Assembly (NCBI GenBank): GCA_000165425.1 | Contig: CT868036.1 | Span: forward strand, 124,001 to 188,000 | Source: Paramecium tetraurelia | Lineage: Eukaryota | Direction of reading: 5' to 3' | Length of the DNA: 64,000 nucleotides | Shown: positions 55,985 through 64,000 of the stretch, in pieces | How the letters are laid out: every line of letters starts with the position of its first letter | Position numbering within the stretch: position 1 is the first letter of the stretch | Notes under the pieces: generated by a model | What the model was told of the DNA's origin: nothing | Database searches by the model: none | What the model saw: only the letters and a program-made list of their open reading frames with translations | Program-made: the position numbers and the translations under genes

Positions 55985-56094
55985 AATGTGCTTAATAAAT
56001 ATTCTTTATTAAAATAACTAAAATCAATAAAAAGTGAACTGAATTTCACAGTGGGTATTATAAAAATTCTAGTTGGTCATATAATAAATTATTA

Positions 56095-59000
56095 ATGAAT
56101 TCAATTATTACCATTTTAACTACTTTACTTATTAAATCTTTAGCTTAAGTCATAATAGTTTATGATTAGAAGAATGACACAATTTAATAAACAGCTAATA
56201 CTATTACTTTCAATATTACTGCAACTTTTCCAACATCCTCAGATGTATAAGTGGATGTCTAATTGCCAAGTCAAATTATTGGCCAAGAAAACATTGTATG
56301 TGGTGTAACAGGTTTGACCAATGGAGCTTGTAATTTAGTTTACAGTAAATTTATAATTACTTTCAAATCTGCAACACCTACTTTCTAAATTATTTTTATC
56401 AATGTAAACAATCCGATAACTACATATACTGATCAAGTTCAATTAAATGCTTCAGTAATTGCTACAAAATCAGTGATCTTCACAAAGCTTGTACAACTGA
56501 AATTTCAGTTCAAAAATGTGCCTTTATCCATAATTTAACCACCTACAACCTACATTGCAGCTCCTTTAACAATAACTATAGATGGGACTTCTATTACATT
56601 CCCGACATAGTCTTAAATAATAATAACTACAAATGGTGTAATTGATAATTTAGTTAAATTGACTGGCATAGTGTTTGAATCAATAAAACTTTAAGATAGC
56701 ACAATAATCATCAATAATGTTTAACTACCATCTAATGCAAAAAGTACTTTTAGCATTTCCAAATTTATTATTAAATCTAATGAACCAATAAACTATAAAG
56801 TAGAAATATTAGACTCTAACAATGGATAAATTACCATGTTTTAAACTTCTCAAACAGTTTAAACAATCAATAATAACTATGATTACACATTGTCTGCAGA
56901 AAATTAAGTAGTTGGAATGCCAACTTCAATTAAAATCATTTTATGTAATCTAGATGAATAGAGTAAGTTTATATTTACCTCTTCAATTGCAAAACTTAAC
57001 TATGTTACTTCTTATGAATCTAGTTGTCATAGCACATTGATTTAATAATTTACTAATCCATTTTCGTTGAATTCCATTAGCTTTGATTTGTAGGTTACTC
57101 TAAATAATTTTAATAGCATCAAAAGATCTATTTCGTACACTCCAATTAAGGATTAAATATCAATGACTCTGACTTAGAACACAACTATAATGTTAAATTA
57201 TGCACTGGTTATATTATCTTTGTAATTGAATTAACAATATAGCAACTTTTTTATAGAATTGGCAAACTCCTACACAACAGATAGTTGTAAAATTTAGGAT
57301 GTAGATTGTTCTTAAATGAATAACATTTACAAATCTAATCTTTTGGAATAAAAGCTAAATAAAGTGATAATAAAACTGGAGATTTTATTACCTGGTTGCG
57401 ATTCTTATTATTTTTAGGCTAAACTCATCTATTAAAATTAAGAATTGGCCACATCTAATTAAATAACTCCATTATTAGTTAAATATAAATTAACATCAAC
57501 ATTAAGTACATCTTCATTTAATATCGGAGAAGAATCAGTTTTCACTATAAATGGTTTAGATTCAAAATAAATTACAAAATATTATGTCTCAACGACTTTA
57601 ACTGATTTAAAATGTTAAGACTGTATATAAAATGAAAATTAGTTATAATACGGTTAGGTGAACAGTATTCAATTTTCGGCCAATAATTTAAAAAATGTAA
57701 AGCCTTATACCATAACAATAATAGCATACAACGATTAATGTTTAATTGCAGAATAAATTTTTAGATAGTAAGCAATTGCACAAAAATTATAATTATCGGT
57801 AATTACTGATAATAATTATCAATAAGCCCAAGGTAATTGGCAAATAACCATTTCTCCTGATATACAGGATAAAGGTATAATGAAAACCCCATTTATTCTG
57901 CCAAATAATTAGGAAAATAAAATCAATGCCACCTCTATGTATATCAATTAGACAAAGTATACTTTAAATATGATTAATTGGTACTTTGATAAAGAAGAGA
58001 ATTATTGGGAAGTAGGATATTATAGAGAAGGATATTTATATGCATATGGCAATTTGACCTTGCCTTAATTGAATATTATGGATTTTAAGAATTTGAAGAT
58101 CACTAAACAAAATGCATAAATTAATGAAACAGATAAGGTCATTATAACTTTCGATACTTATTTCGATATCCCTGTAGATGGATAATTACAATTAGATGTA
58201 ACTGACGTGTAATTGAGCAATCTTACATTAAATGGAGTAGAAATCAATAATTAAGTTGTAATTCCTAAAGGAAATTAAGTATTAAATTTTTAAATATCGT
58301 TTATGAATCCAATTAGTAACTATTCAAAACAATTTACTCTTACTTCGTTTAATGAATTAGGAAGGATTTTATAAAAATCAAATTTTCAATATGCTTTTAA
58401 TTATGGATGCAGTATTGAATAATGTGGAGTTTGTAATTTAACTGATTGTATTTCTTGCAAATCCACATTTACATTAGTCAATAATACTTGTTAGTTAATC
58501 TGTGAAGAAAATCAGAATATTGTAAATAATACATGTGTAAATAATTAAAATAATAACACCCACAATGTAAACGATACTAATACAACAACTCCGAATAAGA
58601 CAGGCGACATAACAATTCAGCACGATGAAGATTCTTTTGTTTTTACTCCTCCAATAATTAGCCCAATCGTAGTTCTTATATACTTATTTGCTTTATCTAG
58701 GAAATGTTGGAGTAGTGAATCAGAAACTTTTATAATATTTTATTCTTTAGCATCTGTAATGGAACACATTATCCATATATTTCTTTTCATCTATTTCTTT
58801 GTTACTCTAGATTTGATTTATGGGTTTTGCATGATTTCAGTAATTGTGCTGCATTTTTCATCTCAGATTTACATAGTTTTCATGAATTTGTTTAAGATAG
58901 ATCCAGAGTATATTGGAATCCGCTAATAAAATAATTGGTTAAAGTTGCTCCATATTATTTCACTTACTTTTTGTGGAAGATTACTATTGTTATTAATAAG

Positions 59001-59262
59001 CAAATTTGACCAATCTTATGTTTGGTCTACTCCTTGGACCTTTAAAATATCTGTGCTTCAAAGGTTGTCTAACTATTTGAAATTTCAAATAATAGCTTAG
59101 ATTGGTGTATTGACTTTGGTAATATTGGCCATACTATAGAAATTATTCTTACTCTACATTGAGATTCTTAGTTTTCAAATTATACAAACCGTTGTTACAC
59201 TCTATACTTTCAACCATTTGAGAAATCAAAAAAATTAAGAAATTAGATACACATATGTATGA
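56095..59262 (+). CDS. Large surface protein: signal peptide, beta-rich ectodomain, furin-like Cys cluster, 6-7 C-terminal TM segments
   Basis: Intronless 1055-aa frame; CSIEQCGVCNLTDCISCKSTFTLVNNTC followed by multiple hydrophobic segments. Confidence 0.85.
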
Positions 59263-60503: not shown

Positions 60504-61358
60504 GAACTTATATTCATATTGTTATCAAATATTGACAAACTGTAGCCTCCAAAAATTTTATTTTTTATTTATCATTAATTATAAATTTGAAACTCTGAAT
60601 AAATAATTTAATTGTTTCTCCTTCATGGTTTAAATTTTAACATAAAGCAATTATTCTTGATCATGGGATGTAGATGTAAAGGACCGTAGTTCAAAAGTCT
60701 GTAAGTTATGAAAGCTTGTAGGAGTTTCAGAATTAATAATTAAAGTTGATTTTTATATTGAAATTTTGCCAAGCATATAATAAATCCCTTCCCATATTGA
60801 TTCTACTTTAATATATTATTTAAAGCATCATAAGTAGCTACAGGGAATTTATTTCGTTTAAGAGAAAAATTATTGTTCATTTTATTGAAATTCAAACCAG
60901 TCAAAATTATGTTGATGAACTTATCCATAAAATTTTAAGTCAATTCTGAATTAAATAAAAACTAATAATTGAATAACCACTAAATATTTTTTTTTAATTT
61001 CACTCCTTATATATAAGTTTTCTTGACAAAATTATAAATAAATAATATAAAAAAGGGATGAAAAATAAATTTTAAATAACACGAATAACTATTCTCAAAA
61101 AATATTTTTCATTTAACTAAACTTGATCAATATCAATAAATTTATTCATAATAGCATATAGAAATATATAGAAATTAAAATTAATGGGTAAGTTTGATTT
61201 ATTGTATTTAAAGAAATACTCTAAAGAATATTTATTTAATATTACTAGGACAATTTATTTTCTGAAATTTTTAACTATGTGTAATAAAAGGAATAAATTA
61301 AAAAAAATTGTATTTATAATTCATAAATAAAAATAACAAAATCACATTTATTTTTTCT

Positions 61359-62903
61359 TCATTTTTTTGATTTATCTCTAGAACCACTGTGATATGATTA
61401 TTTTTTGTCATATTTCTAATTTTTATATTCTTTTCTGCTCTTTAGTTTGTCCTCTTAGAATTTTTATTTATAACTACTTCTCCATTTCTTTTATTTTTTT
61501 TCTCTTTTAGAACATGAATATTTTTTTTCTTTACTTTATTTGTTATTAAGCATTTCCTTTTTTTTTGATGAGGAAATAACAGACTTATTACTAGAATTGC
61601 TAGAACTATTTGAACTATTAGAGCTACTTGAACTACTTGAACTGCTGGAGCTGCTTCTAGAATATTTTCGTTTTTTGAATTAATTCTTATTATTTTTATT
61701 TAATAGTGTATTTGAAAGAAGATTATAACATAATTATTTTACAATTGGATGAGTATATTTATTATCACCTTTGATTCCTGGTATCTATCCATTATTAATT
61801 TTATCAAATAACACTTATGTGGTCTGAAGGATCTGAACAATATTGCTTAGATTATTAGTATTCTTAGCATAATCTTCTTATTTAGTTGTCTCTTTATCTT
61901 CCTATTTAGTTGTTTCTTTATCCTCTTATTTAGATGTTTCTTTATCTTCTTATTTAGATATTTCTTTTACTTCTTGTTTAGACTAACAAAAGTCAGAAGT
62001 CTTGATTTGATTATTCTGAATTTATTCATCTTTTTTTACAGTTTCTTCTTAATCTCTAAAAATTTCATCAATATCCCATTCATCAGCTGTACTTGATTAT
62101 TATTTAACTTCAACTTGCATTTGTCCAATGGGAAAGGTTTGACAGATGGCTTTTGCAATGCTATGTTGAATTTTGAATCCCTCATACAATTCAAAAGATG
62201 GAAAATCATAAATAGTTTTGATGGATGACTATCTTCTTAGCCATTGAATTTTAAAGGTCTTAAGTTTAGGGAATTATTAATCATATACGACAAGTTGATT
62301 GATCATTTTAGCACAACCAACAAATTCATCATTATTAATAAAAATCAAAATAACATTTGCAGGGATATTGCATTCTTGCGCTAATTTAAAGTACGTGATT
62401 TCTTTGACTGTCCAAACTGAGAATCTTTTGGCATGAGCTAAATTATTTTTATTTGATTTCATGAGGTAGAAGACAGAATTGAATGTAATGAATTCATTAC
62501 AGGGAGGCTCTGGTACAAATGTTTGAAATGATTCTGTGTATTTATAATGACATTGGGAATTGATATTGAAGAAACATTTGGATTTCTGACAAAATATATT
62601 CTCACAAGTGGAGCAGATGAATTTTTAACAACAAGGAGTTGAAATTTCAAAATCTCTAGAGAAACAGGAAAGACATATATTTCTTCTTTTTGGAACTCGA
62701 ACTAATATTATCATTTGCTTGTTTCTAATTTCATCACTAATATTCAAAATCTTTTCTTCATAAAGCATTTGGATATCGTCTTTCTTGGATGTGAACATTT
62801 ATTCAATTTTGACTCTTAGGTCTCTTACTTAGATTTTGATTCCTTAAATTGGTATAGTTTAGACTTCTGAGCTGTTTTCCCATTTAAAAGTTATTGAATT
62901 CAT
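61359..62903 (-). CDS. DWNN (ubiquitin-like) + RING + YTH domain protein with Ser/Lys/Arg-rich tail (RBBP6/Mpe1-like YTH fusion)
   Basis: Intronless 514-aa frame: MNSITFKW...IILVRVP; CLSC...PCCQKFICSTC...C; FYLMKSNKNNLAHAKRFSVWT...VILIF...FVGCAKM...FKIQWL. Confidence 0.8.
61875..61985 (-). repeat. Short coding tandem repeat, 24-bp unit (KQEDKET[T/S]), about 4.5 copies
   Basis: SKQEVKEI SKQEDKET SKQEDKET TKQEDKET TKQED within the YTH-fusion gene. Confidence 0.8.
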
Positions 62904-62998
62904 TTTAAATTAATTATTAGGTAATTATTCAATTTTATTTGAATTAAATAAATGAAAAAAATGTATGTAATATTTTGTACAACACCTTTGAAATATAA

Positions 62999-64000
62999 TC
63001 AATTATAAATAAAATTGAAAGAACGTTTTTCTGTCATACCTACTGATGGACTCTTGACAGAGTTGAAACTCTTTTCGCTTGGAATGAAACTAGGATGAAC
63101 AGTCAATTAGTGAGGATTCTTTTTCTAAGATAAACCTCTACTAGATTCAAAACTATAAGATGATTGTCTTTCTTTAGATAGTGTAGGTTATCTTTCTTTG
63201 GAATGAGTGGTGGTGTGTCGTTCATTTTTGGTAAGAATTCTATCAACTTTAAAAAACTGAGGTTCTCTTTGTTTGGCTTAAGCATTTGTAGTAGTGAAAT
63301 AACTAGGTTTTGGAATGATAGCCTAAGTTAAGAATATGAATACTTTAGTATTATTTTATTTGGAGTTGTTTTTAAGATGAGAGAAATCAAAATAAAACTG
63401 TTGCTTAATCTAACTAGTAGGAGTAATATAGGACATATTTTTGGTGATTGTATTGAGATCTTCAATTAAATCTTCAGGCAATTTATGTTTCTTCTTGAGT
63501 TCTTCTGTTTCCAAATTTTATTGATATTTTTTAAACCATGGATAATTCAGCAATTCCACAACAGTTGGTCTTTCATCTGGATCAATGGTCAACATCCCAT
63601 ACAATAATGCAATAGCTTCTTTGGATATATCATGAATGATGGTAAATTCTCCTGATTGGATTCTACTATACAATTCTTAATCAGTGTCCCCTTTAAATGG
63701 AAATACTCCTTAGAGCATAGTGAATAGCACAACTCCTAATGCCCAGACATCTGACTTGTCTCCTCTGTATTCTTATCTTGTAACTATTTCTGGAGCCATG
63801 TAACTTGGAGTGCCACAAAACATTTTGACTTTCTTATCAATGGGAAAAGAAGTTGAAAATCCAAAATCTATCAATTTAGGAGTAAGTCCGTCTAACAAGA
63901 TATTTTCTAATTTGATGTCTCTATGTGCAATGTTCTTGGAATGACAATATTGAATTGCATCTAGAATTTATTTGAATATTCCTTTGGCAATTTCCTCTTC
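62999..64000 (-). CDS. CAMK-group (MARK/AMPK-like) Ser/Thr kinase; 5' end outside the window
   Basis: IAHRDIKLENILL, LIDFGFS, FCGTPSYMAPE, DVWALGV, with the tail ending SFNFIYN*. Confidence 0.9.

Follow-up and report, generated by a model that had tools for sequence, protein, structure and literature searches.

RBBP6 in human and Mpe1 in yeast are activators of the CPSF73/Ysh1 endonuclease, and the DWNN domain is not known from any family other than RBBP6/Mpe1. In plants and apicomplexans, a YTH domain is fused to CPSF30, and in this way m6A steers poly(A)-site choice and guards against read-through between close-packed genes. Mmi1 of Schizosaccharomyces pombe is a YTH protein that acts without m6A, and the pocket of YTHDC1 is formed by the residues W377, W428 and L439. 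The ubiquitin-like (Ubl) domain of Mpe1 binds Ysh1 with F9 at the interface (PMC6436931), and through its PSR, residues 209-218 with P215, Mpe1 touches both Pfs2/WDR33 and the poly(A) signal (PMC9380774). Our literature search found no description of a DWNN-YTH fusion or of a ciliate RBBP6. Here we describe a transcribed gene of Paramecium tetraurelia that carries a YTH domain behind a likely DWNN-type Ubl domain and an eight-cysteine module.

The gene lies on the reverse strand of the analyzed window, a stretch of 64,000 nucleotides, where it occupies positions 61359..62903 as a single exon of 514 codons plus TGA in the ciliate code. Translation with table 6 places the start ATG at 62903 and the stop TGA at 61359-61361, in agreement with the intronless 514-aa frame of a preliminary description made from the sequence. 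Because only TGA acts as a stop here, a long open frame is little evidence of coding; 27 in-frame TAA or TAG codons are read as glutamine across the frame, and a 383-aa open reading frame in another phase overlaps it. The 514-aa frame is nevertheless coding, given the conservation of the P. sonneborni orthologue P0002 (71% identity to the window protein over 514 columns), a Pfam YTH match above the cut-off, and RNA reads.

The evidence of transcription consists of raw reads. For the oligo-dT RNA run X21, 248 reads were placed on positions 61100-63200, and the in-gene depth comes almost wholly from pairs with the first mate on the forward strand, which is consistent with RNA from the reverse strand. 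Coverage is continuous from the bin 61313-61383 through the bin 62875-62945, no splice joints were found among the X21 reads across the gene (61100-63200), and an empty bin (62946-63016) separates it from the upstream kinase gene, whose stop codon lies about 95 bases from the start of the DWNN-YTH gene. This unbroken and unspliced coverage, which drops to a depth below 1 in several 3' bins, together with the empty upstream bin, therefore indicates an intronless gene with one transcript rather than the two separate transcripts that the preliminary description had considered. A contig of run X5 also extends over 61343-62904. Three RNA runs from one study, similar in depth, gave 248, 38 and 18 reads, a 6- to 14-fold spread, and tblastn revealed no further copy of the gene within the window (next best E 0.51).

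One X5 contig carries an in-frame, TA-bounded insertion of 27 nt at 62513..62514, between codons 130 and 131. The forward strand at this site reads GG before and TAC after the insertion point, and the insert begins with TA. These bases suggest a germline IES that was retained; an intron was ruled out, as a GT..AG placement is impossible and the insert is bounded by TA.

The N-terminal domain (62691..62894, reverse strand; aa 4-71) is likely of the DWNN type. Against Pfam DWNN (PF08783) the window protein scores 17.6 bits (E 0.0044; cut-off 26) over profile positions 1-74 of 74, and the whole profile is likewise matched in 10 of the 12 family members scanned, namely all ten that have an N-terminus. 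The DWNN domain of the preliminary description holds in that this is the sole Ubl family that Pfam matches in all ten full-length relatives, and over its full length; it falls short in that the match stays below the Pfam cut-off in every member (best E 7.4e-4; 17.6-18.9 bits in three of them) and that, up to E 10, an N-terminal profile retrieved no solved chain of DWNN, RBBP6 or Mpe1. The residues F6, D28-L29-R30, R69 and P71 are shared by the two paralogue lines of the family, and F6, R69 and P71 stand where DWNN has its motifs YKF and R-x-P. When the ESM Atlas was searched with the Ubl domain of the paralogue P0004, with ubiquitin families excluded, the top three clusters were all DWNN, the first of them sharing 176 features at a score of 0.87; an Atlas score under 0.9 counts as a lead and no more, and these results concern P0004 and not the window protein. 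AlphaFold2 models of aa 1-135 (12-row alignment, pLDDT 37.6) and of the whole protein (6-row alignment, mean pLDDT 41.3) are unusable for the N-terminus.

Only five residues separate the Ubl domain from the eight-cysteine module (62550..62675, reverse strand; aa 77-118), which has the pattern C77-x2-C80-x10-C91C92-x4-C97-x2-C100-x9-C110-x7-C118. All eight cysteines are invariant in five of five sequences, with P-C-C-x4-C-x2-C as the core, and the module probably binds two zinc ions. It is RING-like by pattern only; it has no conserved histidine ligand, and its last pair is spaced x7. No RING family was matched in the window protein (P0001) by Pfam at E <=10, the best RING found by the N-terminal profile among solved structures was that of RNF123 (E 2.3, not significant), and a profile of the cysteine module alone found no RING there, its one match being a viral polyprotein (E 0.56). 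Of the PCC-type RING proposed earlier, the module shows eight invariant cysteines, but neither a RING profile nor a solved RING matched it. The RBBP6 zinc knuckle, already reported as absent, was indeed not found: there is no zf-CCHC or zf-CCHC_2 match at E <=10 and no C-x2-C-x4-H-x4-C pattern in the sequence.

The YTH domain (62118..62486, reverse strand; aa 140-262) is a reduced one. Pfam YTH (PF04146) matches aa 144-225 only, covering profile positions 2-93 of 135, and reaches 32 bits where the cut-off is 22.1 (E 1.2e-07), and it matches 12 of 12 family members. Foldseek with the whole-protein model, whose pLDDT is about 60 in this region, gave 151 matches at E <=0.001, and all the rows listed are YTH structures with Mmi1 at the top. 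In sequence searches against solved structures, the best non-compositional match of the window protein is the CPSF30 YTH (E 0.027), and nine of the best 11 matches are YTH chains of Mmi1 (E 0.03-0.07). The YTH domain that had been read from the sequence is accordingly borne out, and the sub-regions had been placed correctly within a few codons (Ubl aa 4-71, cysteine-rich aa 77-118, YTH from aa 144).

An alignment with the second paralogue line (line B) and a YTHDC1-like protein reveals that the window's copy, which belongs to line A, keeps N151, N154 and W164, all invariant, as the first half of the pocket. The pocket loop of line A, corresponding to human YTHDC1 residues 428-439 (PMC8313237), is eight residues shorter than that of line B, lacks a tryptophan and contains the aromatic F211 as well as L214, and a second deletion precedes YEGFK, the segment aligned to GRDGQE. 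Because of the eight-residue deletion two pocket positions are missing in line A, which keeps one of the three YTHDC1 positions (W164) and has K or a gap in the other two columns; the loop of the more distant orthologue L001 is likewise without a tryptophan. To judge from this alignment, the three-residue m6A-reading pocket is incomplete in the window's YTH domain. The preliminary description had pointed to the kept first cage tryptophan, the divergent second one and YEGFK in place of RDGQE; its label of an m6A-coupled factor, with two of three pocket positions lost here, fits the line B paralogue better.

Further downstream, an acidic repeat KQEDKET(S/T) is encoded by 4.6 tandem copies of a 24-nt unit (61872..61982, reverse strand). 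Copy number varies by species: P0002, P0010 and P0012 have a shorter array or none. It is followed by the motif K-x-N-x-G-x-IPG-x-x-G-x-x-x-Y-x-HP (61734..61808, reverse strand; aa 366-390, with G-x-IPG at aa 372-376), which is common to both paralogue lines, has 14 invariant columns in five sequences, and is identical at 35-36 of 40 residues among line A orthologues. Among solved structures the motif profile gave only chance C5a matches (E at least 1.2) and no Mpe1/RBBP6 chain, the carriers of the PSR. The low-complexity tail (61362..61682, reverse strand; aa 408-514) is Ser-rich and then Lys/Arg-rich, RS-type-like, and contains an NLS-like KKRK; its only match, to PPIG in the RS region (E 0.0054), is compositional. 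Such a tail may direct the protein to the nucleus.

Relatives were found only in Paramecium, where they form two old paralogue lines, and not in ciliates at large, to which the fusion had earlier been attributed. A HMMER scan of 1.84 billion representatives yielded six proteins at E <=0.001. One of these six, P0007, is a repeat protein of 1179 aa in which the match is confined to aa 208-249, and it was taken as spurious. Three word-indexed searches, with 1 match among 216 candidates, 2 among 8000 (a search swamped by low-complexity words) and 2 among 3438, yielded P0002, P0004 and a single YTHDC1-like protein of amphioxus and nothing else, and a metagenome scan gave one locus out of 109 candidate stretches. 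The architecture had been described as unfamiliar from other organisms, yet the ESM Atlas records a 94-member cluster with the automatic name 'DWNN/YT521-B-like domain-containing protein', 100% of which have YTH and 96% DWNN.

The YTH domain of the line B protein P0004 scores 101.8 bits over the full Pfam profile, each of the three pocket positions of YTHDC1 has an aligned counterpart in line B, and its closest solved relatives are the YTH domains of Arabidopsis CPSF30 (5.8e-19) and Toxoplasma CPSF4 (7.8e-17). It is plausible from these alignments that line B is an m6A reader with a complete YTHDC1-type pocket. Line A has changed faster than line B. Within line A, orthologues agree best in the reduced YTH domain (110-116 of 123 residues identical), which argues for function. 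We suppose that line A probably binds RNA independently of m6A, in the manner of Mmi1, or has an altered ligand.

We consider it the best explanation, with a probability of about 0.42, that this is a functional Paramecium gene encoding a modular nuclear RNA-processing adaptor, in which the front end derives from RBBP6/Mpe1 and a YTH domain occupies the RNA-contacting place. Like RBBP6/Mpe1, the window protein has a Ubl domain, likely of the DWNN type, at its very start, then a putative all-cysteine zinc module with the P-C-C-x4-C-x2-C core, and, as in long RBBP6, a basic Ser-rich tail. Unlike them, it has neither a CCHC knuckle nor a detectable PSR, its zinc module stands five residues after the Ubl domain and ends with a C-x7-C pair, and a YTH domain is inserted where the RNA-contacting parts of RBBP6/Mpe1 would be, before the short conserved motif and the RS/K-rich tail. 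In the proposed mechanism, the DWNN domain would dock on the nuclease CPSF73 in the way that Mpe1 engages Ysh1, the transcript would be held by the YTH domain, and the tail and motif would recruit further processing factors. Several observations count against this explanation: the DWNN match is below the cut-off in every member with no solved RBBP6/Mpe1 chain matched at E <=10, the cysteine module is without a RING match and has the x7 last pair, the zinc knuckle and the PSR as two defining parts of RBBP6/Mpe1 were not found, and the AlphaFold2 models of the N-terminus are unusable, so that the Ubl domain and zinc module are read from sequence.

It is doubtful, although worth serious attention, that the protein is instead a YTHDC1/Mmi1-like nuclear factor of RNA surveillance or silencing, in which the Ubl domain and zinc module serve as a ubiquitin ligase or adaptor unrelated to the cleavage and polyadenylation machinery, perhaps with a role in developmental RNA or genome rearrangement. 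The YTH domains of the window protein and of Mmi1 are both divergent and would not be expected to read m6A; Mmi1 is among the closest matches in sequence (nine of the best 11) and fold (the top Foldseek row), and it has no need for m6A; however, these matches are weak, no better than that of the CPSF30 YTH, and Mmi1 is without a Ubl or zinc module. YTHDC1 shares a YTH domain with charged low-complexity tails, and the RS/K tail would suit a protein of the nuclear speckle type, but YTHDC1 lacks the N-terminal Ubl/zinc module and line A lacks counterparts of W428 and L439. The strong difference between 248, 38 and 18 reads, in runs of unspecified sampling conditions, might fit stage-specific use; the DWNN domain, on the other side, is not known outside RBBP6/Mpe1. 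We also think it improbable that the preliminary description holds literally, with this very protein recognizing m6A in pre-mRNA and tying it to the activation of CPSF73 and the choice of poly(A) site. N151, N154 and W164 are invariant, F211 and L214 in the shortened loop might substitute for what is lost, the paralogue has a CPSF30-like YTH domain, and PMC12695648 (supplementary file 7) lists two METTL3 and two METTL14 writers for P. tetraurelia. In the published table, METTL3/METTL14 are recorded for Paramecium and Ichthyophthirius but missing from Tetrahymena and Oxytricha. Against this stand the loop that gives two of the three pocket residues, eight shorter than in line B and without a tryptophan both here and in L001, the Pfam match limited to profile positions 2-93 of 135, and YEGFK in the place of GRDGQE behind a second deletion.

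N6-methyladenine is abundant in ciliate macronuclear DNA, and the YTH domain might read it there, for example where transcription leaves the non-template strand single-stranded, while the Ubl domain and zinc module would act on chromatin. Complexes of YTHDC1 and YTHDC2 with 6mA DNA (6wea, 7l4y, 9szp) matched the model in Foldseek, and PMC12695648 reports four AMT1-type DNA methyltransferase genes in P. tetraurelia and 6mA readers still awaiting identification. We regard this as very unlikely, as the loss of the pocket counts equally against 6mA and m6A reading, the RS-type tail and DWNN domain point toward RNA processing, and RNA writers are also present in Paramecium, so that DNA need not be the ligand. 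Scarcely credible, finally, is that line A is a duplicate in decay that does nothing by itself. Its faster evolution and truncated YTH domain would agree with decay, and in P. pentaurelia and P. primaurelia the same contigs also bear short fragment models of this gene type; on the other hand, the 514 codons are intact and transcribed, the domains are 81-94% identical between species as against 54-59% for linker and tail in the most distant orthologue, and a more distant organism has a syntenic orthologue that is 55% identical.

Returning to the adaptor explanation, close parallels are CPSF30-L of Arabidopsis (PDB 5zuu) and CPSF4 of Toxoplasma (PDB 7ng2), in which a DC-type YTH domain is likewise fused to a cleavage and polyadenylation, or related, protein. 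There, however, the partner consists of CCCH zinc fingers, for which Pfam gave no match N-terminal to the YTH domain of the window protein, here of the DWNN domain and cysteine module, and both keep the two pocket residues that the window's copy has lost. Intergenic spacers of Paramecium are extremely short. A bolder and rather unlikely extension is that Paramecium has a second, independent coupling of adenine methylation to 3'-end cleavage, in which a YTH domain on an RBBP6/Mpe1-type CPSF73 activator replaces the knuckle and PSR as RNA sensor, the duplicate lines having since diverged, with line B an m6A-dependent activator and the pocket-less line A an m6A-independent one. If this were true, poly(A)-site licensing would have both methylation-gated and ungated routes.

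Should the link to CPSF73 fail, the family would still represent an unstudied architecture of a reader with Ubl and zinc modules. Should it hold, the family would be a convergent wiring of the CPSF30-YTH regulatory idea on another protein, and the lines with and without the pocket would provide a natural experiment on the contribution of m6A reading. Candidate readers would also be named in an organism with RNA m6A writers and abundant DNA 6mA.

The coding frame lies at 61359..62903 on the minus strand and runs from ATG to TGA over 514 aa when translated with NCBI table 6, with 27 TAA/TAG codons read as glutamine. Given that TGA is the sole stop in the surrounding DNA of 25% GC, long open frames are common and frame length alone is no proof of coding. 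A second frame of 383 aa in another phase (61133-62284, minus strand) overlaps it, and the stop-to-stop version of the 514-aa frame extends to 63146, adding an open in-frame stretch (62904-63146, minus strand) 5' of the ATG; both are by-products of the TGA-only code, and the RNA coverage, which ends before 62946, places the latter outside the message. The 514-aa frame is coding, as judged from a Pfam YTH match above the curated cut-off, RNA reads, and identity to the P. sonneborni orthologue P0002 (490 aa), which is 71% over 514 alignment columns, both proteins beginning with MNSITFKWENSSE.

Three oligo-dT RNA-seq runs carrying the same species label were mapped on 61100-63200 and yielded 248 (X21), 38 (X22) and 18 (X23) reads. 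Nearly all X21 depth within the gene comes from pairs with the first mate on the plus strand, which fits minus-strand RNA in a usual stranded library. The X21 coverage is gapless from bin 61313-61383 through bin 62875-62945, contains no joints, and falls to zero in bin 62946-63016, ahead of the upstream kinase gene. The gene is therefore expressed as a single message that is unspliced and has very short UTRs, although depth is below 1 in several bins of its low-complexity 3' part. This agrees with the intronless frame of the preliminary description, and the RNA forms one continuous unit rather than two separate transcripts. The 6- to 14-fold spread in reads among these three runs of one study, from which similar amounts were read, suggests condition- or stage-dependent expression.

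A 1589-nt contig from sequencing run X5 spans 61343-62904 and is identical to the window except for a 27-nt insertion at 62513/62514. The insertion is TA-bounded, in frame and free of TGA, and separates codon 130 from codon 131, within the linker that joins the cysteine module to the YTH domain. It was rejected as an intron because no GT..AG placement is possible; none of the four X21 RNA reads at 62513/62514 contains it, and it resembles a germline IES, of the most frequent size class, that has been retained.

All named relatives of the protein belong to the Paramecium aurelia complex, and the exact 514-aa sequence is absent from the protein collection searched. When aa 1-270 were compared by HMMER with the full set of 1.84 billion representatives, just six proteins reached E <= 0.001. 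Cluster look-up of the relatives resolved two paralogue lines with identical module order and 33-34% overall identity. Line A, the window's type with a reduced YTH domain, includes P0002, P0010 (P. pentaurelia, 493 aa), P0012 (P. primaurelia, 493 aa) and some fragment models; line B, with a full YTH pocket, includes P0004 (P. sonneborni, 502 aa), P0017 (P. pentaurelia), P0018 and P0019 (P. octaurelia), and P0020 and P0021 (P. tetraurelia). Their sources use no name more specific than "YTH domain-containing protein" or "unnamed protein product". No second copy was found in the 64-kb window, the next best tblastn match having an E of 0.51. Two short gene models, P0005 (P. pentaurelia, 111 aa) and P0011 (P. 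primaurelia, 127 aa), hold parts of the cysteine module and the first half of YTH followed by divergent sequence; each shares a contig with a full-length line A gene (P0010 and P0012, respectively), and they could represent pseudogenes or partial tandem duplications.

The same-strand upstream neighbour is a protein kinase gene (Pkinase, 159 bits); the downstream neighbours, a Myb-domain gene and a 1074-aa frame that matches no family, are on the opposite strand. A metagenome scan gave, out of 109 candidate stretches, a single locus, L001 (1916 nt, 39% GC), in which the same kinase is followed by a line A-type gene, in the order seen in the window; this gene is 55% identical to the window protein and 36% to P0004. 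Both L001 genes contain many frame breaks, plus an in-frame TGA, which we read as homopolymer sequencing errors (indels), the alternative being a pseudogenised locus. Line A and its kinase synteny therefore predate the species compared. No sign of a functional link to the window's gene was seen among the neighbours, only the kinase being conserved, in L001. The 1074-aa frame (56038-59262, plus strand) has no Pfam match, is N/T/S/I-rich, is hydrophobic in its C-terminal part, and may encode a large surface or membrane protein. In the 3' portion of the kinase gene, X21 RNA reads carry A>G at 63140 (10/13) and T>C at 63146 (11/14); the probable cause is that the strain or allele differs, or that some reads stem from a duplicate gene, and not editing.

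The window protein is a member of the YTH family. Its YTH domain (aa about 140-262) scores 32 bits against the Pfam cut-off of 22.1, over profile positions 2-93 of 135 only. With the whole-protein model, whose pLDDT is about 60 over YTH, Foldseek reported 151 structures at E <= 0.001, and every match listed is a YTH structure (Mmi1, YTHDF2, YTHDC1, CPSF4, Pho92, YTHDC2), in keeping with the fold initially recognized. The line B domain is canonical (101.8 bits, profile 2-135), and the solved structures that it matches at E <= 0.001 are YTH chains in 39/39 cases, the best being Arabidopsis CPSF30 (5zuu, 5.8e-19) and 7ng2 (7.8e-17), followed by YTHDC1 at about 1e-14; 7NG2 is the Toxoplasma CPSF4 YTH (PMC8313237).

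The m6A pocket was compared in an alignment of both lines and one YTHDC1-like protein. Line A retains the K-S-N...N and V-W-T part (N151, N154, W164). Its pocket loop, reading YDQQFPKLKT, is 8 residues shorter than that of line B through a deletion and lacks Trp; Trp is also missing from this loop in L001. A second deletion precedes YEGFK, the segment that aligns to GRDGQE. The preliminary description had noted the first cage Trp as present and the second Trp and RDGQE motif as divergent. At the pocket positions W377, W428 and L439 of YTHDC1, the aligned line B residues are W, W and L, whereas line A keeps one of the three and is thus without this three-residue pocket. Residues 428-439 of YTHDC1 belong to the aromatic cage (PMC8313237). 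Among line A orthologues, no other part is nonetheless conserved as well as the YTH domain (110-116 of 123 residues identical vs 42-63 of 71-75 in the linker that follows); the reduced domain is under constraint and not in decay.

The ubiquitin-like domain (aa 4-71) is quite probably of the DWNN type, as first proposed. It scores 17.6 bits (E 0.0044) against Pfam DWNN, short of the cut-off of 26, with the whole profile covered (1-74 of 74). A full-profile match, always below cut-off, recurs in 10/10 full-length members (best E 7.4e-4), and the other two of the 12 scanned are fragments missing the N-terminus. No other ubiquitin-type family was matched in the Pfam scans. In the ESM Atlas, with ubiquitin families excluded, the best three named clusters for aa 1-95 of the paralogue P0004 are DWNN (0.87, 0.85, 0.84), the first having 176 features in common with the query; aa 1-165 of P0004 rank fourth a 94-member cluster named "DWNN/YT521-B-like domain-containing protein" (0.77), with YTH in 100% and DWNN in 96% of members and Ciliophora as the commonest phylum among the three members of known phylum. 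These scores, obtained for P0004 rather than the window protein, are leads only by the tool's calibration. On the other side, none of the solved structures that the N-terminal profile matched at E <= 10 was a chain of DWNN, RBBP6 or Mpe1, and two AlphaFold models gave no usable fold over this domain.

Five residues separate the ubiquitin-like domain from a cysteine module (aa 77-118, C-x2-C-x10-CC-x4-C-x2-C-x9-C-x7-C), and the CCHC knuckle of RBBP6 is missing from the protein, just as had been stated. All eight cysteines are invariant in 5/5 aligned sequences (both lines and an unnamed fragment), and the T-P-C-C-x4-C-x2-C core resembles the all-cysteine RBBP6 finger. The name RING is a suggestion at the level of pattern and not a result, given that Pfam gave no RING family for the window protein at E <= 10, the N-terminal profile had the RNF123 RING as its best solved match (E 2.3), and the cysteine-only profile matched no solved RING.

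Beyond YTH, the two lines have in common a short motif (aa 366-390, K-x-N-x-G-x-IPG-x-x-G-x-x-x-Y-x-HP), in which 14 columns are invariant across five sequences and 35-36 of 40 residues are identical among line A orthologues; its profile found nothing informative among solved structures. The Mpe1 segment PSR comprises conserved residues 209-218, of which P215 contacts the poly(A) signal, and it senses RNA bound to the polymerase module (PMC9380774). An acidic repeat, KQEDKET(S/T), is encoded by a 24-nt tandem array at 61872-61982 (minus strand; 4.6 copies, 88% matches); it is shorter or absent in other Paramecium species, and orthologues differ in length largely because their copy numbers differ. 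The C-terminal tail is Ser-rich and then Lys/Arg-rich, with a single, compositional match to an RS-type region.

Given the sub-threshold though leaning positive DWNN match, the absent knuckle, and a RING and PSR that are not established, the protein is filed as a putative RBBP6/Mpe1-derived or RBBP6/Mpe1-like architecture and not as an orthologue of that CPSF73/Ysh1 activator. The preliminary description knew of no other organism with this architecture; no published description of a DWNN-YTH fusion or a ciliate RBBP6 was found in the literature searched. Automatic annotation had already captured the combination in the name of the 94-member Atlas cluster.

The window's gene thus encodes an expressed four-module protein with conserved modules and a depleted YTH pocket, and its sister line has the pocket intact. 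We propose, at a probability of roughly 0.4, that DWNN would dock on Paramecium CPSF73, a link that we infer, and that YTH would take over the RNA contact supplied elsewhere by knuckle and PSR, while the short motif and tail might recruit further factors. Line B would act m6A-dependently, and line A without m6A or on another ligand. CPSF30-YTH ties m6A to polyadenylation in Toxoplasma and plants (PMC8313237, PMC6117058). An m6A-dependent line B is plausible because METTL3/METTL14 are listed for P. tetraurelia (2/2; Ichthyophthirius 1/1, Tetrahymena 0/0, Oxytricha 0/0; PMC12695648, supplementary table 1).

The main rival, a YTHDC1/Mmi1-like surveillance factor acting outside CPSF, is a less probable alternative to the CPSF73-docking proposal. 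Literal m6A reading by the window's copy, as originally suggested, is improbable given the 8-residue loop deletion; the suggestion fits line B better, and the window's copy is the less likely of the two paralogue types to read m6A. A reader of DNA 6mA is more doubtful still, and a dying duplicate, against which the constraint on the reduced YTH domain speaks, is the least probable. The original observation is therefore confirmed, and its interpretation is supported in part. We contend that this architecture, together with a pocket-plus/pocket-minus paralogue pair, is worth an experiment for specialists in 3'-end processing or m6A.
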